Positions 49,799-62,772 of a stretch of DNA of 64,000 bases are shown here, one piece after another. Positions within the stretch are counted from its first letter, which is position 1, and every line of letters starts with the position of its first letter. This DNA comes from a virus (lineage: Duplodnaviria > Caudoviricetes), in IMG/VR virus record IMGVR_UViG_3300037067_027683, positions 38,385 to 102,384 of that record. One strand, written 5' to 3'. A model generated the notes under the pieces. The model made no database searches. It was given only the letters and a program-made list of their open reading frames with translations, and was not told the DNA's origin. The position numbers and the translations under genes are program-made.

Positions 49799-50071
49799 AT
49801 GTTTGATATGAAGATCAACGTCCCTGAATCAGCTAGAACTGAATTCTGGCATGAACCACCTCCAGGACATAATGAATTTTGGGGTTTTCGTTTTAAACCG
49901 AAATGTATTCCTGGCGACCCAATCTATTTCTATTTTGATGGTGAAATGGTTGCTACTGCAGTGGTTTCTCATATTGAGCCTCCTGGTAAGTCTTCTTGTC
50001 AGGAAACTGGTCGTTTTAAGAATTTATGGAAAGTTCATTGGAATAATGACACTTTTTCGTCTAACCGGTAA
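49799..50071 (+). CDS. hypothetical protein (PUA/ASCH-like possible)
   Basis: FW..PGD.IYFY..V motif. Confidence 0.55.
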   Translation: MFDMKINVPESARTEFWHEPPPGHNEFWGFRFKPKCIPGDPIYFYFDGEMVATAVVSHIEPPGKSSCQETGRFKNLWKVHWNNDTFSSNR

Positions 50072-50348
50072 AGGTGATTATATTGGCTTCGCTTGGACTC
50101 CAGATTGATTCAATTCTTCTATTAATATGGTCATCATCGACTTCGACTTGACATGTTACATTGTTACCTTCAATTTTGGCAGATCCTTTTATTACATAAC
50201 CGATGATTTGTTTGTCGTCGGTCCAATAATTTCTAATCACGTTTAGATTCTTTGTGTTTAATTGTTCTAATAATGACTTGACTGCTACAGGCGAGAGTAC
50301 GAATCTATCGTCATCGAGACTGAATGCTGTCACTTCTATGGTTGCCAT
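50061..50348 (-). CDS. hypothetical protein
   Basis: AAGGA RBS. Confidence 0.6.
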   Translation of the reverse strand: MATIEVTAFSLDDDRFVLSPVAVKSLLEQLNTKNLNVIRNYWTDDKQIIGYVIKGSAKIEGNNVTCQVEVDDDHINRRIESIWSPSEANIITFTG

Positions 50349-50444
50349 GTTTTGATTCCTTTCTATTATAGTACGTTTGTATTACGTAGGAATCAACATA
50401 AAAGATAGGGAAGCGGTGATGTATCTAACATTAAGGAGAACATC

Positions 50445-50621
50445 ATGAACAAGCATAGTCATTCGGAAGATTACTGTCACAAGTGTCGAACCTGGGTTGA
50501 GCCAAAACGTATTGAAAGTCAGTTTGGTCCTCTGCCAAAATGTCCATCTTGTAAGTCGGTGATGTTTGAATCTATTTGTAGACAGGCGAGACGAGTACAT
50601 ATAAGCAGCAAGGGAATTTAA
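50445..50621 (+). CDS. 58-aa Zn-ribbon protein (not in ORF track)
   Basis: AAGGAG RBS; YCHKC...KCPSC. Confidence 0.6.
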   Translation: MNKHSHSEDYCHKCRTWVEPKRIESQFGPLPKCPSCKSVMFESICRQARRVHISSKGI

Positions 50622-50835
50622 GACGTACATATGTCCGATAAAAAATAGGTTGGAGGATGTGATGTCTACGCTACGATTGCCTACTTCAAGCTGGTGTACG
50701 AGAGGCGTAAGCCTCCCGACAGCGCCAGCCTATAATTTCGGAGGCACTGGCTAAAGGCCACCCAAAGCGATAAATGAGGAAATTCGCGGGGGTGGCCAGG
50801 AATACTGGTCACCCCCGCGCTGTTAGGAGAATGGA

Positions 50836-51045
50836 ATGAAAAGAAAGACATGTAGATGGTTGTGTCATTCTTTGGTTTTTGAAGGGAAGGAATTTAAAAT
50901 TGGGTGGTTGGACAAAAGGCCAATGACAGCTTATTTGAAACTCGCTAAGGGAAAGGTTGTTCGGACTTTGGAGGTTGTGCCTGGAAAGATTTTGATGGAT
51001 GTTGGGAGGAAAGACAAGGTTTTGGGGGTTGAATTTTTGATGTGA
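50836..51045 (+). CDS. DUF2283-like protein
   Basis: AYLKL..GKV.RT.EV....LMD....VLGVEFL. Confidence 0.65.
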   Translation: MKRKTCRWLCHSLVFEGKEFKIGWLDKRPMTAYLKLAKGKVVRTLEVVPGKILMDVGRKDKVLGVEFLM

Positions 51046-51127
51046 TTATACATTTTGGGTTTTGATTAGACGTGCAGCGTCGAACGAGCGTAACTCACGC
51101 GGAGCCAGCACTCAGTTCTTGTATTTG

Positions 51128-51202
51128 GTCCCCGTAGCTCAATGGAAGAGTCACAGATTTCTAATCTGTAGGTTACAGGTTCGAGTCCTGTCGGGGATGC
51201 CA
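51128..51202 (+). tRNA. tRNA-Arg(TCT)
   Basis: cloverleaf, loop TT-TCT-AA, CCA. Confidence 0.9.
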
Positions 51203-51209
51203 AATTTAT

Positions 51210-51284
51210 TCCCTAGTAGCTCAATGGTAGAGCACATGACTGTTAATCATGGGGTTGTAGGTTCGAGTCCTACCTGGGGAGCCA
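51210..51284 (+). tRNA. tRNA-Asn(GTT)
   Basis: cloverleaf, CCA. Confidence 0.95.
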
Positions 51285-51286
51285 TT

Positions 51287-51373
51287 GGAGGCGCTTGTTA
51301 GTGGGATAACACCTGCGCTGTAAACGCAGCGTCCGATAGGACTAGTAGGGTTCGATTCCCTACGCCTCCACCA
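51287..51373 (+). tRNA. tRNA-Tyr(GTA)
   Basis: cloverleaf with long variable arm, CCA. Confidence 0.9.
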
Positions 51374-51389
51374 ATGTATCTAAAATTTT

Positions 51390-51467
51390 CGAGGTGTAGC
51401 TCAGTTTGGCTAGAGCGCCTGGTTTGGGTCCAGGAGGCCATGGGTTCAAATCCCGTCACCTCGACCA
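51390..51467 (+). tRNA. tRNA-Pro(TGG)
   Basis: cloverleaf, CCA. Confidence 0.95.
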
Positions 51468-51472
51468 ATTTT

Positions 51473-51535
51473 GGGGCTGGATGTCAGCGTAAGGGGATAC
51501 CCTTACGTGGTGGAATTAACCACCGCAGCCCCACC
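51473..51535 (+). ncRNA. D-armless tRNA-like mini RNA
   Basis: GGGGCTG/CAGCCCC acceptor plus ACC, 9-bp stem with GATA loop, T-arm-like hairpin. Confidence 0.55.
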
Positions 51536-51539
51536 TTTT

Positions 51540-51614
51540 GTGGGTGTAGCCTAGAGGTTAGGCGCTAGCCTTCCAAGCTGGATCACGCGGGTCCGAGTCC
51601 CGCCACCCACTCCA
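51540..51614 (+). tRNA. tRNA-Gly(TCC)
   Basis: cloverleaf, U73, CCA. Confidence 0.92.
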
Positions 51615-51622
51615 TTTTCGGT

Positions 51623-51698
51623 GCCGGTGTAGCTCAATCAGTAGAGCGCGATCTTGGTAAGATCGAGGTAGTGGGGGCAGAACCCACCACTGGCTCCA
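51623..51698 (+). tRNA. tRNA-Thr(GGT)
   Basis: cloverleaf, atypical T-loop GGCAGAA, CCA. Confidence 0.88.
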
Positions 51699-51699
51699 T

Positions 51700-51972
51700 A
51701 TGTATTTTAATCATATGATTGCTTTTTGCGTTCGTTGTAATAAACTAGCTTATTGGGACGGTGGAAAGGGTAAGAAACTTTCCAGACGTAGATGTTCTAA
51801 ATGTTTTGGGATGCTCACTGGTACTATTCCGCCTGGGAATTATTCCGGTACTAGGTCAATTGATGTAGCCAGAGCAACTGCATTGAGAAGACTGCAATCA
51901 CGAGTTAATGTTGTTGATCAGCCACAATTAACTGCTCCAGTTGAGCTTGGCGACAGAAATTTGATTCTTTAA
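51700..51972 (+). CDS. Zn-ribbon protein ending LGDRNLIL
   Basis: CVRC..CSKC. Confidence 0.65.
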   Translation: MYFNHMIAFCVRCNKLAYWDGGKGKKLSRRRCSKCFGMLTGTIPPGNYSGTRSIDVARATALRRLQSRVNVVDQPQLTAPVELGDRNLIL

Positions 51973-52016
51973 CAAATTTAGTATATAACAGTGGGTCTAA
52001 CAAAAAGGAGAAACCC

Positions 52017-52520
52017 ATGATGCGACGTAATTTCCTGTGTTTGGCGGTAGTAGGTCTGTTGATGATTCCATTTGGTTGTGGAGAGAAGCCATTGACTCCA
52101 GAGCAGATTACGAAGATCTGTAATGAGTCTGGTCAGATTTCTGCTCTTGCCTGGGTTGCTGCAGCCAAGCCTACACCAGATCAGGTGAAGGCTGTCAAAT
52201 TTGTCCTTGATGATATTGCCAAGAATTTGAAGGAATACCAGCAGGGTGGTTTTATTGCTGCTCTTCCAGGTATTGAGGAAGGGATTAAGAAAGCTTTTCC
52301 TGGTGAGGATGAGAGGAATATTGCTCTTCGTAAAATTGCCTCGACTTTAGCGAAGAATATGTTGGAAGGATTGGATAATTTGTTTGCTCAACATCCTGAT
52401 TGGAAGAATAAGGGTGCTGAAGTTGCTGGTTACGTTGCTGCTTATGCTTCTGGTGGATCTGCGGCTTTAGATGATTTCGTGGTGAAGGAGACTGCGAAGC
52501 TTGCTAAGGAAAAGAAGTAG
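52017..52520 (+). CDS. putative lipoprotein
   Basis: MMRR, hydrophobic h-region, FGC lipobox-like site; AAGGAG RBS. Confidence 0.75.
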   Translation: MMRRNFLCLAVVGLLMIPFGCGEKPLTPEQITKICNESGQISALAWVAAAKPTPDQVKAVKFVLDDIAKNLKEYQQGGFIAALPGIEEGIKKAFPGEDERNIALRKIASTLAKNMLEGLDNLFAQHPDWKNKGAEVAGYVAAYASGGSAALDDFVVKETAKLAKEKK

Positions 52521-52577
52521 TATTTGATGTCTTGGGCGGAATAAGGTGTGATCCCTTATTCCGCCCAAGGAATAGAT

Positions 52578-53000
52578 ATGAGTCTAATTCAAGCTTCAAG
52601 TATTCCAAGAGAAATACTTGGTAACATAATACCAGTCGATGATCCAGCTTTTCTAGATGAATTTGCTATTCCTAGGGCAGTTGTTTATGCTAATATACCT
52701 GTTCTTGATAGTTTTCAAGGAATTCCACAAAGTCCTGGCGAGCATGTGGTGGACTCAGCTTTAACTTCAAATGTGATTTCACAAATTTTGAATTATATTC
52801 GTGATGAATTGAATTGGAATTATTTGTACGTAATTGGTCGTCTCCCTAATAGATTAGATCCGAATAGTTTCACAGTTGAGCGTAGGTATTTCGCAAGAGG
52901 ATTATGTGTTCCATCTGACATAATATGTGGTGTGCGACCATCAGAAATAGAAACAGTTAGAGACATACCTGTTCTTGGTGATCGTACTTTGGAGCTTTAG
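52578..53000 (+). CDS. hypothetical protein carrying the capsid-like LDPNSFT motif, ending VLGDRTLEL
   Basis: ORF 52548-53000; ATG 52578 follows AAGGA. Confidence 0.65.
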   Translation: MSLIQASSIPREILGNIIPVDDPAFLDEFAIPRAVVYANIPVLDSFQGIPQSPGEHVVDSALTSNVISQILNYIRDELNWNYLYVIGRLPNRLDPNSFTVERRYFARGLCVPSDIICGVRPSEIETVRDIPVLGDRTLEL

Positions 53001-53073
53001 CGGGCATAGTTTAGTGGTAGAATGCAACCCTCCCAAGGTTGAGATACGAGTTCGATTCTCGTTACCCGCACCA
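53000..53073 (+). tRNA. tRNA-Gly(CCC)
   Basis: cloverleaf, one acceptor mismatch, A73, CCA. Confidence 0.85.
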
Positions 53074-53085
53074 TAGGAGTTGATC

Positions 53086-53685
53086 ATGGATGAGTTGGGG
53101 TCACGTACCTTGGTGTTGGGTGAGGAGGTTAAGTATGTAGTGGGTGTTGATCTAGCACCAGTTACGGACAATCGCAATGATTATTCTGCTGTGTTCATGT
53201 CTGGCAGACGAATTGGCAAATCCACCACAATGTTAAACGCGTTGTCTGCGGAAGTAGAATCACAGAATCGATCTATTCCTACTCCTAGCTTTACAAGACA
53301 GACATTACGAGAAGGTTTCGAAATACTTAACCGTGATCCTGTTGTTAGGCAAACACTTCAAGATAACGCAGTTAGACAGATGCAGCAAGAGGAAGATGAA
53401 GCGATTATTAGGGATATTTCTTTGGTTTCTACTCCGACAGATCCAACTACTCGAATTATGGAATCAACACCTAGATCAACACCGGCACCGAGATTATTTG
53501 ATACTGAACCAATTAGATTTCGTGATCGTGGAGTTCTAGAAACTGGATATTTCTACGCTTCATATTTTCCACTTCAAACTACTCCGACAGTGTCAATACC
53601 AGACACTATGGAGAAATTAAGAGGGAAATTAGTTTATCGCTATACTTATGTTCTTGGTGATCGTGCTTTAGATATGGGGGATTAG
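53086..53685 (+). CDS. mosaic protein of terminase and major capsid motifs
   Basis: AGGAG RBS; segments align to TerL and capsid proteins encoded in this window. Confidence 0.75.
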   Translation: MDELGSRTLVLGEEVKYVVGVDLAPVTDNRNDYSAVFMSGRRIGKSTTMLNALSAEVESQNRSIPTPSFTRQTLREGFEILNRDPVVRQTLQDNAVRQMQQEEDEAIIRDISLVSTPTDPTTRIMESTPRSTPAPRLFDTEPIRFRDRGVLETGYFYASYFPLQTTPTVSIPDTMEKLRGKLVYRYTYVLGDRALDMGD

Positions 53686-53751
53686 CTCATTCAGGAGAGC
53701 GCCTGCTTTGCATGCAGGAGGTGATCGGAGCGAAGCCGATATCCTCCACCA
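53676..53751 (+). tRNA. tRNA-Ala(TGC)
   Basis: G3:U70, T-loop AGCGAAG, CCA. Confidence 0.9.
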
Positions 53752-53757
53752 TTTTGT

Positions 53758-53828
53758 GGGCCTGTCGTACAATAGGAGTACGCCTCTTTCGCACGGAGGT
53801 AATCAGGGTGCAATTCCCTGCGGGTCCA
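53758..53828 (+). tRNA. tRNA-Ala(CGC)
   Basis: G3:U70, no encoded CCA. Confidence 0.85.
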
Positions 53829-53849
53829 TTAGTTAAGTCTTTGGAATAT

Positions 53850-53923
53850 AGGGGTATAGTGTAGTAGGAGCACGACCGTCTCCAAAGCGGTCAGCGAGGG
53901 TGCAAATCCTTCTACCCCTGCCA
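53850..53923 (+). tRNA. tRNA-Trp(CCA)
   Basis: cloverleaf, G73, CCA. Confidence 0.9.
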
Positions 53924-53926
53924 ACA

Positions 53927-54172
53927 TTATTTGCCATCACTGCCAAATCTGTTGACGAGCCAAGTGTATGAGGCAATACAAAGCTTCTTTCGGAGTGTGT
54001 GCACTGCTTGTGTTGTGACACCGATCTTCTTGGCTAAGTCTTTATCGTACATTGTTCCAAGTAATGGGATGTATTGTTCGTCAATAAAATTACAACCCCA
54101 TTTTTTCTTGAGCCATCGTTTCATTCCTTTACTCATTTTCTTTCTATGCTTGTCTGTTGGATGCCATGCCAT
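53927..54172 (-). CDS. small HTH DNA-binding protein
   Basis: LLGTMYDKDLAKKIGVTTQAV..LRKKL. Confidence 0.65.
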   Translation of the reverse strand: MAWHPTDKHRKKMSKGMKRWLKKKWGCNFIDEQYIPLLGTMYDKDLAKKIGVTTQAVHTLRKKLCIASYTWLVNRFGSDGK

Positions 54173-54182
54173 ACCGATATTT

Positions 54183-54216
54183 AGTGCCGGGGCTGGACGG
54201 TTAGGCGCACGCCTGA
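54183..54216 (+). tRNA. 5' half of a split tRNA (Cys or Phe)
   Basis: AGTGCCG acceptor strand, D-arm, CACGC anticodon strand; pairs with 55178-55219. Confidence 0.8.
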
Positions 54217-54217
54217 G

Positions 54218-54289
54218 ATCCGGGTTCTCTGGAGAGGGAGGTCAGCTGCAACCTGATCTATGAGGGTTCGATTCCCTCCTCGGATTCCA
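54218..54289 (+). tRNA. tRNA-Cys(GCA) nested inside the split tRNA
   Basis: ATCCGGG/CTCGGAT acceptor, loop CT-GCA-AC, U73, CCA. Confidence 0.8.
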
Positions 54290-54338
54290 ATAATATGGTT
54301 CGAGTCAAAAATAATATGAACCTTGTTAGGAGAATACA

Positions 54339-55187
54339 ATGAAACGTGGACTAATTTGGCAAATTCCAAAAGATGAATTTCAGACTTTGGTTAGTAGGAG
54401 TAAGACGCTTATAGAAATAGTTAGATTCCTTGGGTATAGAAATATGGGTGGTGGTTATAGAATGTTGAAAAAGAGGCTAATCGAAGATAATATAAATTTT
54501 TCGCATATTTCATTGGGTTTATGCGCTAATAAAGGGAAAAGTTATAAGAAATTTAAGCCAATTTCGCATGAAAAACTTTTTTGTAAAGGTAGTTTATATC
54601 CTAGTTCTACAATTCGCAGGTATGTAGCTCGCGATAAATTGATTGAATATAAATGTAAATTATGCGGTCTCGGTCCTGAATGGAATGGAAAACCATTGAC
54701 TTTGATCCTTGATCATATAAATGGCGATAATACAGACAATAGATTAGAAAATTTAAGATTTATATGCCCAAATTGCGATATGCAAACTGATACTCATGGT
54801 GGGAGAAATATTGATTGGTCAAAATCACCATTTACCAAAAGAATGAAAACCAAATCTTTATTTGATATTCAAAACCAAATCTCAAGGTGTCCTCCCAAGG
54901 ATATATTAGAAAAAATAGTTTGGGAAAAACCAACAACCCATATTGCGAAGGATTTTGGGGTGACTGATAAAGCTGTGACTAAATGGTGTAGGAAGTATGA
55001 TATTAAGAAACCAGAACCAGGATATTGGGCAAAAATGAAACCTATTAAAGCTGGAACAGTTATTACTGAACATGGAAAACAATTTCGCGTTCTTACTGAT
55101 ACAACTGCACATGGGTGCCCGATGGTTGAAGAAATTGAGACTGGTCGGAGATTTATTAAAACGATATATCAACACATCAAAGCGTGA
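54339..55187 (+). CDS. HNH homing endonuclease with C-terminal HTH and an appended 45-aa module
   Basis: C..CG..W.GK.L.LILDHINGD..DNRLENLRFICPNC. Confidence 0.92.
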   Translation: MKRGLIWQIPKDEFQTLVSRSKTLIEIVRFLGYRNMGGGYRMLKKRLIEDNINFSHISLGLCANKGKSYKKFKPISHEKLFCKGSLYPSSTIRRYVARDKLIEYKCKLCGLGPEWNGKPLTLILDHINGDNTDNRLENLRFICPNCDMQTDTHGGRNIDWSKSPFTKRMKTKSLFDIQNQISRCPPKDILEKIVWEKPTTHIAKDFGVTDKAVTKWCRKYDIKKPEPGYWAKMKPIKAGTVITEHGKQFRVLTDTTAHGCPMVEEIETGRRFIKTIYQHIKA

Positions 55188-55219
55188 CCAAGTGGGTTCG
55201 ACTCCCACCGGTACTTCCA
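55178..55219 (+). tRNA. 3' half of the split tRNA
   Basis: GCGTG anticodon strand, GTGGG-TTCGACT-CCCAC T-arm, CGGTACT-T-CCA. Confidence 0.8.
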
Positions 55220-55260
55220 AGTTTGCCGGTTTTAATCCGGCTGGCCCGTAAGGGCCATCG

Positions 55261-55343
55261 TCCAGAGGGCAGATGCGGGTTCGAATCCCGTTGCAGACCT
55301 TTTGTGTCTGTGTAGCTTAATGGCAGAGCGGCCTTCCTTCCAG
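55261..55343 (+). other. circularly permuted tRNA (3' half, TTTTGT linker, 5' half) flanked by TCCAG repeats
   Basis: TGCAGAC pairs with GTCTGTG; AGGGC pairs with GCCTT. Confidence 0.65.
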
Positions 55344-55414
55344 GGGTGATGTAGTTAGATGCATACTAGTCTGAAAAGCTGGAAGCGACGGTGCAAGTCC
55401 GTCCCCCTGGGCCA
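55340..55414 (+). tRNA. tRNA-Phe(GAA)
   Basis: cloverleaf, loop CT-GAA-AA, CCA. Confidence 0.85.
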
Positions 55415-55419
55415 TTTTT

Positions 55420-55496
55420 GCCGCCATAGCTCAGCTAAGTAGAGCAGGGCTTTTGTAAAGCTCAGGTCGGGGGTGCAAATCCCTCTGGTGGCTCCA
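55420..55496 (+). tRNA. tRNA-Thr(TGT)
   Basis: cloverleaf, CCA. Confidence 0.92.
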
Positions 55497-55500
55497 AAAT

Positions 55501-55601
55501 TGCGGGTGGCAATAAGGGCTGGTTGTCCCAAAACATCGGGACTTGCTCTGGCGAGGCTCATAACCTTTGCAACAGGTGTTCGATTCACCTACCCGCTACC
55601 A
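55501..55601 (+). tRNA. tRNA-Met(CAT), initiator-like, with enlarged D-arm
   Basis: 1:72 mismatch, CT-CAT-AA loop, extra GTCCC/GGGAC hairpin in the D-loop, CCA. Confidence 0.7.
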
Positions 55602-55618
55602 ATATTAGGAGGCAAAAT

Positions 55619-55906
55619 ATGGCGTATGGAATGTTTGGAATGCCATCTGCAGAAGTCAAATTGACTAAACATTTTACAGATAAGGATGGTCTTTCTATCT
55701 CGATTCAATCGAGCGAAAAAGGATGGGTAATATATTGGGCCGATCATTCTAATAGTAGTAAGTCAAATGAAACAACATCAGAATTAAACATGGAAGAAGC
55801 TGTTGCGTACCTCAAGCAAAATATTGCCGCCATAGCTCAGCCAGCAGAGCGGCTCTTTCGTAAAGAGCAGGTCGAAGGTGCGAATCCTTCTGGTGGCTCC
55901 AGCTGA
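55619..55906 (+). CDS. hypothetical protein whose 3' end reads through tRNA-Thr(CGT)
   Basis: AGGAGG RBS before ATG 55619. Confidence 0.6.
   Translation: MAYGMFGMPSAEVKLTKHFTDKDGLSISIQSSEKGWVIYWADHSNSSKSNETTSELNMEEAVAYLKQNIAAIAQPAERLFRKEQVEGANPSGGSS
55826..55901 (+). tRNA. tRNA-Thr(CGT)
   Basis: cloverleaf, CCA. Confidence 0.9.
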
Positions 55907-55907
55907 T

Positions 55908-55982
55908 GTGGGTGTGACTCAGTGGTAGAGTGCGACCTTGCCAAGGTCGATGTCGAGGGTTCGATCCCCTTCACCCACTCCA
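55908..55982 (+). tRNA. tRNA-Gly(GCC)
   Basis: cloverleaf, U73, CCA. Confidence 0.95.
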
Positions 55983-56003
55983 TTTTTGAGTATTTTAATT
56001 AAT

Positions 56004-56261
56004 ATGGAAGATAAGAAGAAAGAACATAAATTGAGTCACGCAAAACTCTATAAAGTAGAATATGCGATTTGTACACATGATGATGAGAGATATAGTCTAA
56101 CGTTATATGTCTGTGCCGCAGATGATTTATATAAATGCTGTGTAATTGACTCTATCGAGAAAGCCTTGATGCGTACACATAAGTCCGCAATTGTGACCAG
56201 TTGTGAATATGCCGATAAATGCCCACAACCAAATGATGTTAGGTTTATTCTTTCGAAGTAA
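56004..56261 (+). CDS. hypothetical protein
   Basis: ORF filling the gap between tRNAs. Confidence 0.55.
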   Translation: MEDKKKEHKLSHAKLYKVEYAICTHDDERYSLTLYVCAADDLYKCCVIDSIEKALMRTHKSAIVTSCEYADKCPQPNDVRFILSK

Positions 56262-56273
56262 ACCAAAAATTTT

Positions 56274-56350
56274 GCGGACGTGGCGGAATGGCAGACGCGC
56301 CACGCTTAGGACGTGGTTTTTTGAGGGTCCGACTCCCTCCGTCCGCACCA
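56274..56350 (+). tRNA. tRNA-Leu(TAG) with variable arm reduced to T6
   Basis: Leu-type D-arm, A73, CCA. Confidence 0.85.
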
Positions 56351-56373
56351 ATCTAAAATAATACAAGAACTGA

Positions 56374-56994
56374 GTGAGGATGGAGGAAAGTATGGGTACC
56401 TTGACTTTACCTGTTTTGGTTTTAAACAAGAATTGGGTGCCAATTCGTGTCACTACAGTGATGGACGCGATTACTAAGTTATTCGAAGGTAGAGCCAAAG
56501 CAATTGACGCGAATAACTACCAAGTCTATGATTTTGATTCTTGGTCAGAACTTGCTGCCGTCGAAAATTTACCATATATTGTTACGGCTAGAAATCCGAT
56601 TAGGGTCCCAGATGTGATTGTACTTATTAAGTATGGCGAAATTCCTGAGAAAAAGCTCACTTTCTCTAGGGCTAACATCTATAGGCGTGATAAGTATACT
56701 TGTCAGTATTGTGGTGATCGTCCTGGTACTGAGGAGTTAACTATCGACCATATTGTCGCTAAGTCCAGGGGTGGCAAGACTTCTTGGACTAATTGTGTTG
56801 TGTCATGTATTTCCTGCAACAGGAGGAAAGCTGATAGGACTATGGCCGATGTTGGCTTGAAGTTGAGGAGTCAGCCTGTTAAACCTACTTGGAGTCCTAG
56901 GTTGGTTCTGCAGAAAGTTAGAAACACTCCTAAGAATTGGGATAAGTTTGTTTCTGATGCTTACTGGCACACTGAGTTAGAGCATGATGATTAG
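56374..56994 (+). CDS. HNH endonuclease (McrA-like VLVLN family)
   Basis: VLVLN..W.P, FSRANIY.RD.YTCQYCG, LTIDHI..SRGG.TSWTNCV.SC..CN. Confidence 0.92.
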   Translation: MRMEESMGTLTLPVLVLNKNWVPIRVTTVMDAITKLFEGRAKAIDANNYQVYDFDSWSELAAVENLPYIVTARNPIRVPDVIVLIKYGEIPEKKLTFSRANIYRRDKYTCQYCGDRPGTEELTIDHIVAKSRGGKTSWTNCVVSCISCNRRKADRTMADVGLKLRSQPVKPTWSPRLVLQKVRNTPKNWDKFVSDAYWHTELEHDD

Positions 56995-57488
56995 GCGACA
57001 ACGACATCGTCCATAATCAGACTGAACATGTTCTCAACTTCGATTAAGTATCTATTGAAGTTGGCTATGTCTCCAGCGTTGGTGAGTTGTATGTCTCCAA
57101 CTGTGAATCCTGGAGTGATGGTGAGTAAATCAGTCTTGCCTGTGGCTACTGTCGCGAAGTGATAAGTGTGTCCATCATTCATTGTAAGAATAAAATCCAT
57201 TCTCGCAACCATGTCAGTGATATGTTTTTGTACTGCTGGTCGTGGGCCATTTTCATTGTATTCGAAATTTGGGATTCCAGCATGTTGTATTGCTATGATT
57301 AAAGCCTCCCAGAATGGATAATCTCTGTCTTCGTAGAACCAAGAAACTTGACGGGTGCTCTCTAAGCCTTCCGTCTGGTTCTCACTCCAGGATATATCAC
57401 TCTCAAGTTGCGAATGGAAGCTTGATGTGGTATTGTCGTTGAAGGTGACCAGGCCACTGAGCTTGGCTACCAATGAAGTTATGCGCAT
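56991..57488 (-). CDS. hypothetical late-expressed protein
   Basis: AGGAGG RBS and CAAATTTA motif upstream on the minus strand. Confidence 0.7.
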   Translation of the reverse strand: MRITSLVAKLSGLVTFNDNTTSSFHSQLESDISWSENQTEGLESTRQVSWFYEDRDYPFWEALIIAIQHAGIPNFEYNENGPRPAVQKHITDMVARMDFILTMNDGHTYHFATVATGKTDLLTITPGFTVGDIQLTNAGDIANFNRYLIEVENMFSLIMDDVVVA

Positions 57489-57542
57489 GATTTTCCTCCT
57501 ATGATAAATTTGATCTTCCTGCATAAATAATTAAAATAGGAG

Positions 57543-58517
57543 ATGAGTATGAATCTAAATAAAACAACTGTGCTTGTTACTGGTGGGCATGGATTCCTAG
57601 GAGGAGCATTGGTACGGAGATTAAATGATGCTGGGGCAATATTGGAATTAACAAGTACTAAAAAGGGTCATGATTTAAGAGATAGAGATATTTGTCGTAA
57701 GATTATTAATGAAATTGAACCACAAATTATTGTCCATTTGGCCGCAGTAGTTGGTGGTATTGGTGCTAATCAGAATAATCCTGGTAAGTTCTTTTATGAT
57801 AATATGGCTATGGGTCTAAATATGATAGATGAGGCGCATAAATGCCCATCAGTAGAGAAGTTTGTTCAAGTTGGTTCGATTTGTGCTTATCCGAAGTTTA
57901 CACCTATTCCATTTATGGAAGAGAATTTATGGAATGGATATCCAGAGGAGACTAATGCTCCATATGGGATTGCTAAGAAGGCGTTATTGGTGATGCTACA
58001 AGGTTATCGACAACAATATGATTTCAATGGAATTTATTTATTGCCAGTTAATATGTATGGTCCAAATGACAATTTTGATCTAGATAGTAGTCATGTTATT
58101 CCAGCTTTAATTCGTAAATTTATGGACGCAGTTAAGCATAATATGGATGAGGTAGTGTGTTGGGGAACTGGTGAGGCAAGTAGGGAATTTTTATATAGAG
58201 ACGATTGTGCTGATGCTATTGTTCTTGCTATTGAGAAATATGATGCACCAGAACCTATTAATATTGGTACTGGTTGTGAGATTAAGATTAAAGATTTGGC
58301 CATGTTGATTGCTGAATTATGTGATTTTAAAGGTAAGATTGTATGGGATCATTCAAAACCAGATGGTCAACCCAGACGATGTTTGGATGTGTCACGTGCC
58401 GCTGAAAGGTTGGGTTTCAAGGCTAAGTGGGATTTGCGTAGGGGTTTGGAATATACGATTAATTGGTATAAGCAGACTTTGTTTGTTGATCAGGAGAATG
58501 ATGCAAAGATACATTAG
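57543..58517 (+). CDS. fcl: GDP-L-fucose synthase
   Basis: VTGGHGFLG, HLAAVVGGIGAN, GSICAYP, EETNAPYGIAKK, SHVIPALI, WGTG..SREFLY, KPDGQPRR. Confidence 0.95.
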   Translation: MSMNLNKTTVLVTGGHGFLGGALVRRLNDAGAILELTSTKKGHDLRDRDICRKIINEIEPQIIVHLAAVVGGIGANQNNPGKFFYDNMAMGLNMIDEAHKCPSVEKFVQVGSICAYPKFTPIPFMEENLWNGYPEETNAPYGIAKKALLVMLQGYRQQYDFNGIYLLPVNMYGPNDNFDLDSSHVIPALIRKFMDAVKHNMDEVVCWGTGEASREFLYRDDCADAIVLAIEKYDAPEPINIGTGCEIKIKDLAMLIAELCDFKGKIVWDHSKPDGQPRRCLDVSRAAERLGFKAKWDLRRGLEYTINWYKQTLFVDQENDAKIH

Positions 58518-58519
58518 AC

Positions 58520-58813
58520 ATGGTGTTAATCAGATCATGTTGTTACCGTCGTGAGCGCCTTTTTGATCTTAGGCGAAAGGCGCATCAAGTTTTTGATCAA
58601 TTTTGGTGTTCTAAGGTCATAACTCGTCGTCAGGCTTATCGTTGGTTGGCTGCTATGATGAACTTAAGAAGATGTGATTGTCATGTGCGTTTCTTTAATT
58701 CGCGACAATGTTATCAGGTGATCGAGTTGTGTAGGCGGTCATCGATTTCTGATGTTTCTAATTGGGTTGCTTCGCATCGGATACTTTACAGCGTTGGTTC
58801 TGATGATAGATAA
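58520..58813 (+). CDS. DUF3268-like protein (C-terminal part)
   Basis: LRRKAH..FD..W..R..AY.WLA..M....CH...F...QC. Confidence 0.65.
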   Translation: MVLIRSCCYRRERLFDLRRKAHQVFDQFWCSKVITRRQAYRWLAAMMNLRRCDCHVRFFNSRQCYQVIELCRRSSISDVSNWVASHRILYSVGSDDR

Positions 58814-58829
58814 GGTCGAGGCAAAGTTA

Positions 58830-59030
58830 GGTTGGAGAAGATGAAGTCATGGGTATGTTAGTCGTCAGGATACAGTTAAGTTCACAGGTGAGCGATAAAG
58901 AATCGCTCATTAAGCGGCATATGTTGCTGCGTGAACAAACTGAACCTGACTCGTAACGCCACCCAACAAGTCAGGTTTTCCCGAACGGGGTGGCGACGAA
59001 AGTTTCCACCCCGTTCTTGTTTTCGGGAAT
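58830..59030 (+). ncRNA. putative structured ncRNA
   Basis: nested complementary segments, CAAAGTTA upstream, GC-rich terminal hairpin. Confidence 0.55.
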
Positions 59031-59043
59031 TTGATAAGGAGAT

Positions 59044-59119
59044 GTCCTCGTAGTGTAGTGGATTCGCACGTAACCCTGCGGAGGTTGAAGAGCAGGTCCG
59101 ATTCCTGCCGAGGATGCCA
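59044..59119 (+). tRNA. tRNA-Arg(GCG)
   Basis: cloverleaf, loop CT-GCG-GA, CCA. Confidence 0.9.
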
Positions 59120-59224
59120 GTTTAAGTCCAGCATGGCTTTGCGGAACTAAATTTGGTGAAGTGTTCCGTTGTTGCTGGCAGGGTTCTTTGACATCCGAAT
59201 AGCCGCCGTTATTTTAACTGATAA

Positions 59225-59270
59225 CCTCTGCACGGTTCGAGTCAAATATAAATCGAACCGTGCAGAGGAG
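59225..59270 (+). promoter_or_regulatory. RBS-occluding hairpin with a late-promoter motif in its loop
   Basis: 16-bp perfect stem covering GAGG of the RBS; CAAATATA in the loop. Confidence 0.8.
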
Positions 59271-59276
59271 GTGTAC

Positions 59277-60020
59277 ATGCGAAGCAGATTGAAAATGTGC
59301 TCCAAAGATGAATTAATCGATATTGTAAAAAGATGCACTTCCTTGAGAGACATACTAAGATTCTTTGGATATTGTGGTTCAGGGGCAAATGCTAATTTTT
59401 TGAAAGAAAAATTAATGCTTGAAGAGATTGATTTTCAAAATTTGTTTAAGAAAAAAGAAAATATATTCGATCCTAATAAAGTTTTTATTGAACATTCCAG
59501 ATGTGATAAAAGTACTGTTAGACGATATATTTTAAGAGATAAATTAATTGAATATAAGTGTAATATATGTGGATTACTACCATTTTGGTGTGGAAAAGAA
59601 TTGACATTAATTCTTGATCATAAAAATGGCAATAATCGTGATAATAGACTAGAGAACCTTAGATTTGTTTGTGGGAATTGCGAGATGCAATTAAAAACAC
59701 ATGGTAGTAAGAATAAAATTAAGATTATTAGTAAAGCTAGATTTTGTATTGAATGTAATTCGATAATTACTAGGTCATCTAAGTTTGGTATTTGTAAAAA
59801 GTGTTCTTCAAAGAGAAGCGTTTTGAGGAAAGATGGTTGGCCACCTACGAAAGAATTTCTTGAAGTATTGATTTGGAAGAAGCCAACAACCCAGATTGCT
59901 TGTGATTTCGGAGTGAGTGATAAGGCAATTACGAAGTGGTGTAGGAAATTTGGGTTATCAAAGCCTGGTCCTGGATATTGGATGAAAAAGATTGATGGTG
60001 GTTGTAGCTCAATTGGTTAG
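59277..60020 (+). CDS. HNH homing endonuclease (paralogue of 54339)
   Basis: LILDHKNGNNRDNRLENLRFVCGNC; C-terminal HTH KPTTQIACDFGVSDKAITKWC. Confidence 0.92.
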   Translation: MRSRLKMCSKDELIDIVKRCTSLRDILRFFGYCGSGANANFLKEKLMLEEIDFQNLFKKKENIFDPNKVFIEHSRCDKSTVRRYILRDKLIEYKCNICGLLPFWCGKELTLILDHKNGNNRDNRLENLRFVCGNCEMQLKTHGSKNKIKIISKARFCIECNSIITRSSKFGICKKCSSKRSVLRKDGWPPTKEFLEVLIWKKPTTQIACDFGVSDKAITKWCRKFGLSKPGPGYWMKKIDGGCSSIG

Positions 60021-60075
60021 AGCACCAGATTGTGGATCTGGCGATTTGGCGGTTCGAATCCGCTCAACCACCCCA
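59997..60075 (+). tRNA. tRNA-His(GTG)
   Basis: G-1:C73, CCA. Confidence 0.93.
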
Positions 60076-60076
60076 C

Positions 60077-60310
60077 TTATGGTATTACTTTCCCATTAAC
60101 AAGACTATCAACATGTACAGTGAAATTCTCTATCAGAAGATTACGAAAAGATTCAATTCCTTTTTCGGCGATAGTATCAGTGCATTTCTCAATATCAACT
60201 CTAAAAACTAGGTCTCTGTATGGTTTGAGTGTGTGTTTATCAAGTTCAACATTGCCAGTTATAACTGCAGAGAACAAATCTTCTATATGACTACCATCTG
60301 CTTTTGTCAT
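60077..60310 (-). CDS. hypothetical protein
   Basis: AAGGAG RBS. Confidence 0.65.
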   Translation of the reverse strand: MTKADGSHIEDLFSAVITGNVELDKHTLKPYRDLVFRVDIEKCTDTIAEKGIESFRNLLIENFTVHVDSLVNGKVIP

Positions 60311-60851: not shown

Positions 60852-61034
60852 ATGAAACTACGAAACTTACAAAAACCAATATGTGAAGTATGGCGATCAG
60901 CAACTAGGACTATGCGTAGAATTAATATGTCAACTAATTATTCTAGTTCTTGCCGCCACTATAGTGATGTTGGGTCAATTGAACCAAAAGATTATTTTAA
61001 GAAAACCAAAGTACATGTCTATCAGATTAAGTAG
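60852..61034 (+). CDS. hypothetical protein
   Basis: 60-aa ORF just after CAAAAATA. Confidence 0.45.
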   Translation: MKLRNLQKPICEVWRSATRTMRRINMSTNYSSSCRHYSDVGSIEPKDYFKKTKVHVYQIK

Positions 61035-61383
61035 TTTTCTGCGGTTCTGGCCACACTAAATGTTGATATATTGTCTTGATAAATTTTCGTCCTGTTTTAA
61101 TTTCTTCAACCAAAGGGCAACCATGGGCAGTAGTATCTTCAAGTACGCGATATTGCATACCATGTTCAAATATTACTGTGCCAGCTTTAATTGGACGTTT
61201 CATAGGATCATTTTCTGGTGGTTCTGGCCATACTACTTTCACACCTAGGCTTTCTAGATAATTTACCATATCGATTAATTGTAATTTGAATTTTCGTTCA
61301 TTGTAAGGGATTTTGGTTTTCTTGTGGTATGTTTCTGCGAGAGTGATGAGGTGTGGCGGGATGTCTTTGATGCTTGATCGCAT
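61027..61383 (-). CDS. hypothetical protein sharing a 45-aa module with HNH 54339
   Basis: GGAG RBS before ATG 61383; PIKAGT...IYQH module. Confidence 0.7.
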   Translation of the reverse strand: MRSSIKDIPPHLITLAETYHKKTKIPYNERKFKLQLIDMVNYLESLGVKVVWPEPPENDPMKRPIKAGTVIFEHGMQYRVLEDTTAHGCPLVEEIKTGRKFIKTIYQHLVWPEPQKTT

Positions 61384-61450
61384 GTTTTTCTCCATTTTGG
61401 ATTTTAAATACTTGCTGGCGTGGCGTGGCGTGGTGGAATTGGAGTGAGTG

Positions 61451-61660
61451 ATGTCGCGTAAAACTGGTGTTAAGTGGAAGACGGAGAAATGTGGACGATG
61501 TGGTGAGCAACATTTGGGGTATTCTGGGAAAATAAACGCTGATGGTAAAGAATATGTGGTTTGTGGAAAGACAGGAAAACCAATGATGGTTAATCCGTTT
61601 GATTTCAAAATCGATGACATAGCCTACATCACAAAATGGGAAAAAGAAATGGTGGAGTAG
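61451..61660 (+). CDS. small Zn-binding hypothetical protein
   Basis: CGRCG..H..C; GGAG RBS. Confidence 0.65.
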   Translation: MSRKTGVKWKTEKCGRCGEQHLGYSGKINADGKEYVVCGKTGKPMMVNPFDFKIDDIAYITKWEKEMVE

Positions 61661-61971: not shown

Positions 61972-62487
61972 ATGAAATACACTAAAGAAATACTAGAACC
62001 ATTAGTCAGAGATTCTGATTGTATGGCAATGTTAATGAGAAAATTAGGAATATCATTTATTTCTGGTGGTATGCATGGCCACTTGAAAAAGGTAATAAAG
62101 AAATTCAACATTGACATATCACATTGGAAAGGGTGTTGTGCAAATCGTGGTAAGTTTCTTCCGAGACGTAGGTGGGAAGATGTTCTTACTCTAAGGACTG
62201 GGATATATAAGGAAAATATTTATGTTTTATTCAGAGCTTTATTACAAAGTGGTGTATTTTATCGTTGTAATAAATGTGGTATTTCCAATTGGAATGGTAA
62301 ATTTCTGAGACTTCAGGTAGAACACAAAAATGGAAATCCAAAAGATAACAGGAAGGAGAATTTGGAATTTCTTTGTCCTAATTGTCATACTCAGACTGAA
62401 ACATATGCCGCAACCATGAAGACACGACTATGTGGTGGGATCGGTAGACGTATTGAAAAACTAGTGATGAAATTTGCGCCCCAGTAG
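61972..62487 (+). CDS. HNH homing endonuclease
   Basis: KYTKEIL, CNKCG..WNGK.LRLQVEHKNG..DNR.ENLEFLCPNCHTQT. Confidence 0.92.
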   Translation: MKYTKEILEPLVRDSDCMAMLMRKLGISFISGGMHGHLKKVIKKFNIDISHWKGCCANRGKFLPRRRWEDVLTLRTGIYKENIYVLFRALLQSGVFYRCNKCGISNWNGKFLRLQVEHKNGNPKDNRKENLEFLCPNCHTQTETYAATMKTRLCGGIGRRIEKLVMKFAPQ

Positions 62488-62551: not shown

Positions 62552-62616
62552 AATTATTTCTCATTCGATCAATTTCGAGTGGTCTTAACTCATCCCAACG
62601 GCAGGAGGCTTAGTGT

Positions 62617-62689
62617 GAGGGTGTAACTCAATTGGTAGAGTAACGGCTTTTTAAGCCGTAAGTTGCGAGTTCAAGTCTCGCCACCCCCA
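62617..62689 (+). tRNA. tRNA-Lys(TTT)
   Basis: cloverleaf with A2:C71 mismatch; 3' end ACTA. Confidence 0.8.
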
Positions 62690-62696
62690 CTATAAT

Positions 62697-62772
62697 GTGG
62701 CAGAATAGCAGACGCGTTAGGCTCAAACCCTAATTCTTAGGAGTGAGGGTTCGACTCCCGCCGAGCGCACCA
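62697..62772 (+). pseudogene. tRNA-Leu(CAA) with long variable arm, lacking the 5' acceptor strand
   Basis: CGAGCGC-A-CCA has no 5' partner; mismatch in T-stem. Confidence 0.7.

Follow-up and report, generated by a model that had tools for sequence, protein, structure and literature searches.

The DNA analysed here (the window, a stretch of 64,000 nucleotides) is the final 64 kb of a 102-kb IMG/VR virus record, which is estimated to represent 28% of its genome. Among the relatives identified by means of the capsid gene are complete records, 371 and 395 kb long and bearing terminal repeats, which implies that the source phage is large, with a genome of approximately 370 kb. From 51 kb to its end, the window is occupied by a plus-strand cluster of tRNA genes, at least 29 in number, among which small ORFs and four HNH genes are scattered.

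One tRNA-Cys(GCA) gene of this cluster (hereafter the outer gene) is not contiguous, 962 bp being found between its anticodon bases G34 and C35. Its 5' half (54183-54215, plus strand) comprises the 5' acceptor strand, the D arm, the 5' strand of the anticodon stem and the loop nucleotides C32, U33 and G34; its 3' half (55178-55219, plus strand) comprises C35, A36 and the rest of the loop, the 3' strand of the anticodon stem, the variable loop, the T arm, the 3' acceptor strand, U73 and CCA. Joining 54215 to 55178 yields, according to ARAGORN, a 75-nt tRNA-Cys(GCA) with an acceptor stem of 7/7 pairs (one of them G-U), a 3-bp D stem, an anticodon stem and a T stem of 5/5 pairs each, U73 and CCA, a cloverleaf that bears out the preliminary description, in which the two segments had been taken for matching halves of one tRNA gene. 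Other phage contigs have tRNA-Cys genes without interruption whose 22-nt anticodon arm is identical to that of the joined molecule. From the 5' half, the 12-mer GGCGCACGCCTG was found at one place in the 102-kb record and its reversed control at none.

The DNA between the halves (54216-55177, plus strand; 962 bp in BLAST comparison with the uninterrupted alleles of contigs L106, L107 and L105) starts with AGATCC, ends with ACACAT and has a GC content of 32-34%, as against about 43-45% in the flanks. It is composed of two filler bases, a second tRNA-Cys(GCA) gene, a hairpin, an HNH gene and a small gene fused to the latter; about 120 bases, mostly the nested tRNA, are non-coding and the remainder is coding. 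The nested tRNA-Cys(GCA) gene (54218-54289, plus strand; detected by ARAGORN and by the Rfam tRNA model at 34.6 bits, the gathering score being 29) is intact, has U73 and CCA, and its stems are unlike those of the outer gene. The nested tRNA, the hairpin and the HNH gene with its TGA inside the 3' half were all located where they had been described before.

Other tRNA remnants are present in the cluster. A 5'-truncated class II tRNA-Leu(CAA) at about 62697-62772 and a short tRNA-Leu-like fragment at 62594-62617 flank a tRNA-Lys(TTT) gene downstream of the third HNH gene, constituting more tRNA debris. Such fragments fit with frequent break and repair of this region. Scans for promoter and terminator consensus sequences gave results at the level of shuffled sequences.

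The HNH gene, its hairpin and the fused small gene

The ORF at 54339-55187 (plus strand, 282 amino acids) matches phrog_10822, 'HNH endonuclease', with E=4.9e-42, and reaches 24.2 bits with Pfam HNH_3, just below the cut-off of 24.8. Codons 1-232 (54339-55034, plus strand) constitute the homing-endonuclease core, with a CxxC...DH-N-N...CxxC arrangement, visible in the translation and conserved in the sister phage contig L096, followed by a C-terminal helix-turn-helix-like segment. Comparison of the core to the 243-aa gene of L096 showed 79% amino acid identity and, over 230 codons, a dN/dS of 0.115 (dS 0.95), which implies that the enzyme has been kept functional by purifying selection. The last three codons of the ORF and its TGA stop (55185-55187) fall within the 3' half of the outer tRNA gene, the stop being ten bases into it.

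A paralogue (59277-60020, 44% identical) and another phrog_10822 member (61972-62487) reside in the same cluster, hence three members of this HNH family are found among the tRNA genes of the window; one homolog was found in the tRNA cluster of another phage. In the genes at 59277-60020 and 61972-62487 and in that of L096 (5001-5732), the last codons and the stop overlap the 5' part of the next tRNA gene, these being His and Leu-TAA in the window and Phe in L096. To judge from the gene positions, members of the family seem to abut the 5' ends of tRNA genes.

A conserved hairpin (54287-54330, plus strand) immediately precedes the ribosome-binding site of the HNH gene and extends with its 3' arm into the Shine-Dalgarno region. 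Its fold energy is -9.3 kcal/mol (z -2.2), compared to -13.1 kcal/mol (z -4.2) for the corresponding hairpin of L096 (4948-4991) and -31.3 kcal/mol (z -7.6) for that of the paralogue (59225-59268). Judging from these predicted folds, the hairpin is likely to be a translational control element of the HNH gene, and such hairpins resemble those which, together with late promoters, control the intron endonuclease genes of T4. The loop of the paralogue hairpin (59225-59268) contains TATAAATA.

The last 48 insert-derived codons of the HNH ORF belong to another family. This module (55035-55177, plus strand) starts with ATG, is fused in frame to the HNH core and stops, on the right, where the insert stops. 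From 55035 to about 55174 it is 81% identical at the amino acid level to window positions 61057-61197 (minus strand), and the other members of its family are stand-alone proteins, 56-118 amino acids long. None of the 119 other HNH homologs listed carries the module, their query coverage never exceeding 84%. Since the homology with L096 stops at 55034 and the small gene is truncated at the insert junction, the fusion makes the right border of the insert chimeric and implies a template switch or a second event. The second copy of the small-protein family (RVLEDTTAHGCP...YQH; module at 61057-61197) lies in the ORF at 61027-61620 (minus strand), where a repeated VWPEP-coding sequence brackets the conserved segment; the real gene is probably the 118-aa form (P0124) and not the 197-aa ORF.

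Uninterrupted alleles of the outer tRNA-Cys gene

ORF81 (53927-54172, minus strand; 81 amino acids; without a Pfam or PHROG family) flanks the outer tRNA and marks the recipient type of the locus. Its homologs, at 95%, 83% and 88% identity, led to three related metagenomic phage contigs, L106, L105 and L107, in which the site is empty. In BLAST comparison, positions 601-969 of the reverse complement of L106 (L106rc) correspond to 53848-54215 of the window at 95.4% identity, and positions 970-1289 to 55178-55496 at 86.3%. The 5' half is collinear with L106rc 937-969 and ends exactly at window position 54215, the 3' half is collinear with L106rc 970-1011, and nothing stands between them in L106; L107 and L105 are likewise uninterrupted. 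The collinearity with the three contigs establishes that the insert is exactly 54216-55177, placed between the first and second anticodon bases, and that the interrupted gene is a tRNA-Cys gene. The search for an uninterrupted allele in relatives, advocated in the preliminary description, thus fixed the junction between G34 and C35, and the 5' half, formerly extended to 54216, is corrected to end at 54215 (G34).

The intact tRNA-Cys(GCA) of L106 is identical to the joined halves at 74 of 75 positions; the sole difference is position 37 (window 55180), an A in the window and a G in all three intact alleles. The anticodon loop of the uninterrupted alleles is CTGCAGA and is accompanied by U73, in agreement with the Cys(GCA) identity formerly proposed for the joined halves. 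The other join then considered, CTGA+AAA, which would give Phe, is excluded by the same alleles; Leu and Sec joins, likewise possible on paper, are ruled out by them too. All three intact genes score 40.9-41.3 bits against the Rfam tRNA model (RF00005), and they differ by compensatory changes, A1-U72 being replaced by G1-C72 and, in L105, C31-G39 by U31-A39, which indicates that the intact outer type is a working tRNA family.

ARAGORN alone is weak evidence in this case. With the 3' half held fixed, it also accepted 17 false 5' partners among the approximately 64,000 positions of the window, and in its intron mode, with introns up to 1500 nt allowed, it did not call the split gene. The false partners speak for a chance resemblance of unrelated fragments, or a join made in assembly; against this, both halves are collinear with intact alleles on three other contigs, and the same structure is present in the IMG/VR record and in an independent ENA assembly (contig L097), which is identical to the window over 50000-60187 and collinear through the split. 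A Logan contig, moreover, matches the window in gene lengths and spacing, and both other assemblies encode the identical HNH protein. We regard an artefact or a coincidence as hardly credible, and the caution that the join might arise from assembly can be dropped. It is homology, rather than ARAGORN, that carries the weight for the halves being one gene. L097, being identical over this region, brings no evolutionary information on the halves.

GenBank phages included no close relative and yielded generic tRNA matches only. Exact-pattern scans of viral contigs were negative for the 5' half, for the nested tRNA and for the outer arm with G37. When species genomes were scanned, two matches turned up, both by chance and in non-tRNA DNA rich in GC, and hence no host-like tRNA-Cys of this type. 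Five related large phage records were reached via the capsid gene; the tRNA-Cys genes found in their tRNA regions proved unrelated, and a split copy was not among them. Rfam tRNA matches of 108-114 nt occur in two complete genomes of related phages (G003:C1:217283-217396 and G004:C1:293696-293803); they exceed the length of class II tRNAs and may represent tRNAs into which short stretches were inserted.

A block at 55221-55339, which separates the outer tRNA-Cys from tRNA-Phe, consists of two small hairpins, a tRNA 3' part (T arm and acceptor strand), TTTTGT and a matching 5' part. The same block occurs with few substitutions in L106 (reverse complement, about 1012-1132), the tRNA pieces at 55266-55335 being common to the window and L106, and is missing from L105 and L107, in which tRNA-Phe begins about 30 nt or less after tRNA-Cys. 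Rfam gave no tRNA match on this block.

A free-standing cassette in a sister phage

The closest HNH after the identical proteins is carried by L096, a 250-kb contig of a sister phage, in the order tRNA-Trp, nested-type tRNA-Cys, the same hairpin, the 243-aa HNH gene and tRNA-Phe. The tRNA-Cys of L096 (4879-4950) is nearly identical to the nested one, the G6-U67 pair being A6-U67 there. L096 is without the outer halves, ORF81 and the C-terminal extension of the HNH protein. The flanks of the window are 99% identical to L096 up to 53833 and 98% identical from 55944, and the cassette is only 83% identical. The 2.1-kb patch at 53834-55943 is thus replaced relative to L096; it has a different tRNA-Trp, a different tRNA-Phe and other tRNA content, a Pro-CGG gene and a 60-aa ORF occur within it in L096 only, and its limits form a sharp mosaic boundary at tRNA genes.

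The Trp-Cys-Phe order is common to the filled, the empty and the free-standing loci, which makes the outer tRNA-Cys the allelic counterpart of the gene beside the free-standing HNH. At this one locus the presence of the HNH gene is therefore polymorphic: the site is filled in the window and L097, empty in L106, L107 and L105, and the HNH gene is free-standing in L096. Hence the locus contains an insertion with exact borders, for which intact empty-site alleles exist and the core of which stands free at the allelic Trp-Cys-Phe position in the sister phage. A single filled allele was found, the three samples that contain it representing the same strain.

The HNH gene might have been a passenger, carried with the tRNA-Cys and the small gene, as a fragment of the cluster of another phage, into the outer tRNA-Cys by random illegitimate recombination or a replication template switch in a repeat-rich cluster, with no cut made by the HNH enzyme. 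The cluster is indeed littered with tRNA fragments, such as the tRNA-Leu remnant (about 62697-62772) and the pieces at 55266-55335, the right border is chimeric with a third gene, and the distant HNH homologs, uninformative as they otherwise are, include some in non-tRNA contexts, e.g. P0003. The insert, however, lies in the allelic counterpart of the gene that neighbours the free-standing HNH, the place at which cleavage by a free-standing homing endonuclease would be expected, and the family of this HNH has three members among the tRNA genes of the window and a homolog in the tRNA cluster of another phage. We therefore consider a passenger role doubtful.

Tests for introns and split tRNAs

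The preliminary description had noticed neither a group I nor a group II intron core, and the searches are in accord with this. In an Rfam 15 cmscan of 53500-56000 at E<=10, the covariance models brought up tRNAs and noise, and neither an intron family nor a group I ribozyme core (P3-P9). The junctions read G-A on the left and T-C on the right: the 5' exon ends with G (54215) and the insert ends with T (55177), where a group I intron needs U and G, and the first bases of the insert, AGATCC, differ from the 5' GUGYG of group II introns, which are further marked by 3' AY and domain V; the insert ends with ACACAT, and Rfam gave no match for group II either. As start codon, ribosome-binding site and hairpin all belong to the HNH ORF itself and no intron family match at E<=10 accompanies it, the gene is not embedded in a self-splicing intron or intein.

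The outer gene could still be functional if the long transcript were processed (e.g. by RNase P and 3' processing at the nested tRNA, plus another cut) and the halves were then ligated, or if they acted as a split tRNA. All stems of the outer tRNA are still perfect, one change only separates the halves from the intact allele, and the minimum-energy fold of the full 1037-nt stretch closes the outer acceptor stem. One relative, G004 (395 kb), encodes T4-type RNA ligases, the only ones among the records searched: an Rnl2-type enzyme inside its tRNA cluster (G004:C1:117115-117609) and an Rnl1-type enzyme (78971-79612). Several points weigh against this alternative, beyond the wrong junction nucleotides for group I and II and the Rfam result. 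No 3-4-3 bulge-helix-bulge was seen in the cofold of the two junction regions, and none in the 1037-nt fold. An RNase P cut at the nested tRNA would leave the 5' half two bases too long, and a 5' end at 55178 is not generated by any known activity. No RNA ligase was found in the 102 kb of the record or in the complete relative G003, and no RtcB in five related records. The cassette is free-standing in L096, and unless ligated, a tRNA with a nick separating anticodon bases 34 and 35 is unable to decode. Rejoining or annealing of the halves, the alternative named in the preliminary description, thus finds no support and is unlikely, and a still functional outer gene is, all told, very improbable. 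Even less credence is given to the cassette as an unconventional tRNA intron, in which the nested tRNA would recruit RNase P and 3'-processing enzymes to cut the precursor, and the halves, kept together by their acceptor and anticodon stems, would be trimmed and then sealed by a phage or host RNA ligase.

The halves differ from L106 by one change and the DNA next to them by 5-14%, a possible hint at constraint. The contrast is not significant when the window branch only is considered, and the low divergence of the halves is equally accounted for by a recombination breakpoint close to the tRNA.

Discussion

We propose that an HNH cassette was copied into a broken tRNA-Cys gene, that the outer gene is now a split pseudogene and that its function is covered by the nested tRNA, an account that we consider probable. 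In the proposed course of events, a cassette-bearing phage (Trp-Cys-HNH-Phe) and an HNH-free phage (Trp-ORF81-Cys-Phe) would have met in one cell, where cleavage of the HNH-free allele by the HNH enzyme would have occurred within its tRNA-Cys gene, in the anticodon loop or close to it. The flanks would have been too diverged for ordinary homing by flanking homology, leaving the break to be repaired by short homology. At the left border, the loop region of the empty allele reads CCTGCAGAG and L096, just upstream of its tRNA-Cys, reads CTGCCAGAT, a short homology of this kind. The repair would have copied the cassette into the break between G34 and C35, by which the outer gene would have become a dead split pseudogene and the nested tRNA-Cys, with its different stems, would have taken over. 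Later the filled patch may have been transferred, through ordinary recombination, to a backbone that shares 99% identity with the sister phage. We infer that it was the HNH enzyme that made the cut, although a different origin of the break is conceivable, and that the nested tRNA would resist cleavage.

The preliminary description went further and proposed a selfish element that destroys its target tRNA and supplies a replacement of the same identity. One part of this proposal stands, namely that the insert carries a tRNA of the same identity together with an HNH gene of a tRNA-cluster family, but an evolved strategy is not what a single filled site argues for. Since the closest relative of the cassette lies between genes and one filled site is known, a one-off illegitimate repair fits better, and 'destroy and replace' is plausible as an outcome. 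The insertion is a variant of a homing-endonuclease cassette with a spare tRNA and not a new kind of intron.

A homing endonuclease that lacks the protection of a self-splicing intron or an intein is expected to keep to intergenic positions, since its insertion would inactivate any gene it entered. In this phage the endonuclease landed in the anticodon of a tRNA gene, which the phage apparently tolerates because the cassette carries a tRNA of the same identity. The locus predicts the target of the enzyme, the anticodon region of L106-type tRNA-Cys genes, serves as a natural case of the invasion of new sites by such elements through short-homology repair, and points to a possible route for the reshuffling and replacement of phage tRNA sets. 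As filled, empty and free-standing alleles are all available, with borders defined to the base pair, it provides a datable insertion scar. For annotators, it shows that tRNA fragments in phage clusters can be the matching halves of a recently split gene. Were the unconventional intron true, this one locus would yield two tRNA-Cys species and an endonuclease mRNA.

Several known systems share features with this locus. The split and permuted tRNAs of Nanoarchaeum and red algae need a bulge-helix-bulge and the archaeal or eukaryal splicing endonuclease and ligase. As in these, two halves are encoded apart and their stems could pair; unlike in these, no bulge-helix-bulge was seen in the cofold tried, and the intact ancestral allele persists in relatives. 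Integrative elements with tRNA genes as their targets rely on integrases and duplicate no more than the 3' part of the gene they enter. They resemble the present cassette in that a tRNA gene is disrupted by mobile DNA which itself brings the sequence needed to preserve the function, whereas here there is no integrase and a whole, diverged tRNA gene is supplied. Group I introns in the anticodon loops of bacterial and phage tRNAs (PMC3984707) are also intervening sequences in an anticodon loop and can carry an endonuclease ORF. In contrast to them, the insert has no ribozyme core, has the wrong splice nucleotides, consists mostly of tRNA and coding sequence and is free-standing elsewhere.

In nrdA of the Aeromonas phage Aeh1, insertion of the homing endonuclease MobE reportedly split the host gene without an intron. 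The 'fractured genes' with new split inteins (PMC2677866) similarly have a free-standing endonuclease inside a functional gene with no self-splicing RNA. The products of fractured genes and of the MobE insertion reassemble as protein, whereas the interrupted product here is a tRNA, useless when nicked in the anticodon, for which the spare copy apparently covers.

A parallel in setting is SegB of phage T4, which recognises a tRNA T-loop motif and drives the inheritance of itself and of neighbouring tRNA genes (PMC2330249), its breaks leading also to rearrangement and amplification of tRNA segments (PMC13096335). As with T4 SegB (PMC2330249, PMC13096335), an endonuclease gene lies among phage tRNA genes and is present in some relatives and absent from others; systems of this type are co-inherited with neighbouring tRNA genes, have a tRNA gene sequence as their target and make breaks that rearrange tRNA segments. 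SegB, however, is a GIY-YIG enzyme encoded between genes, whereas the endonuclease described here is of the HNH type and is situated inside the anticodon of a tRNA gene, having brought along a tRNA of the same identity.
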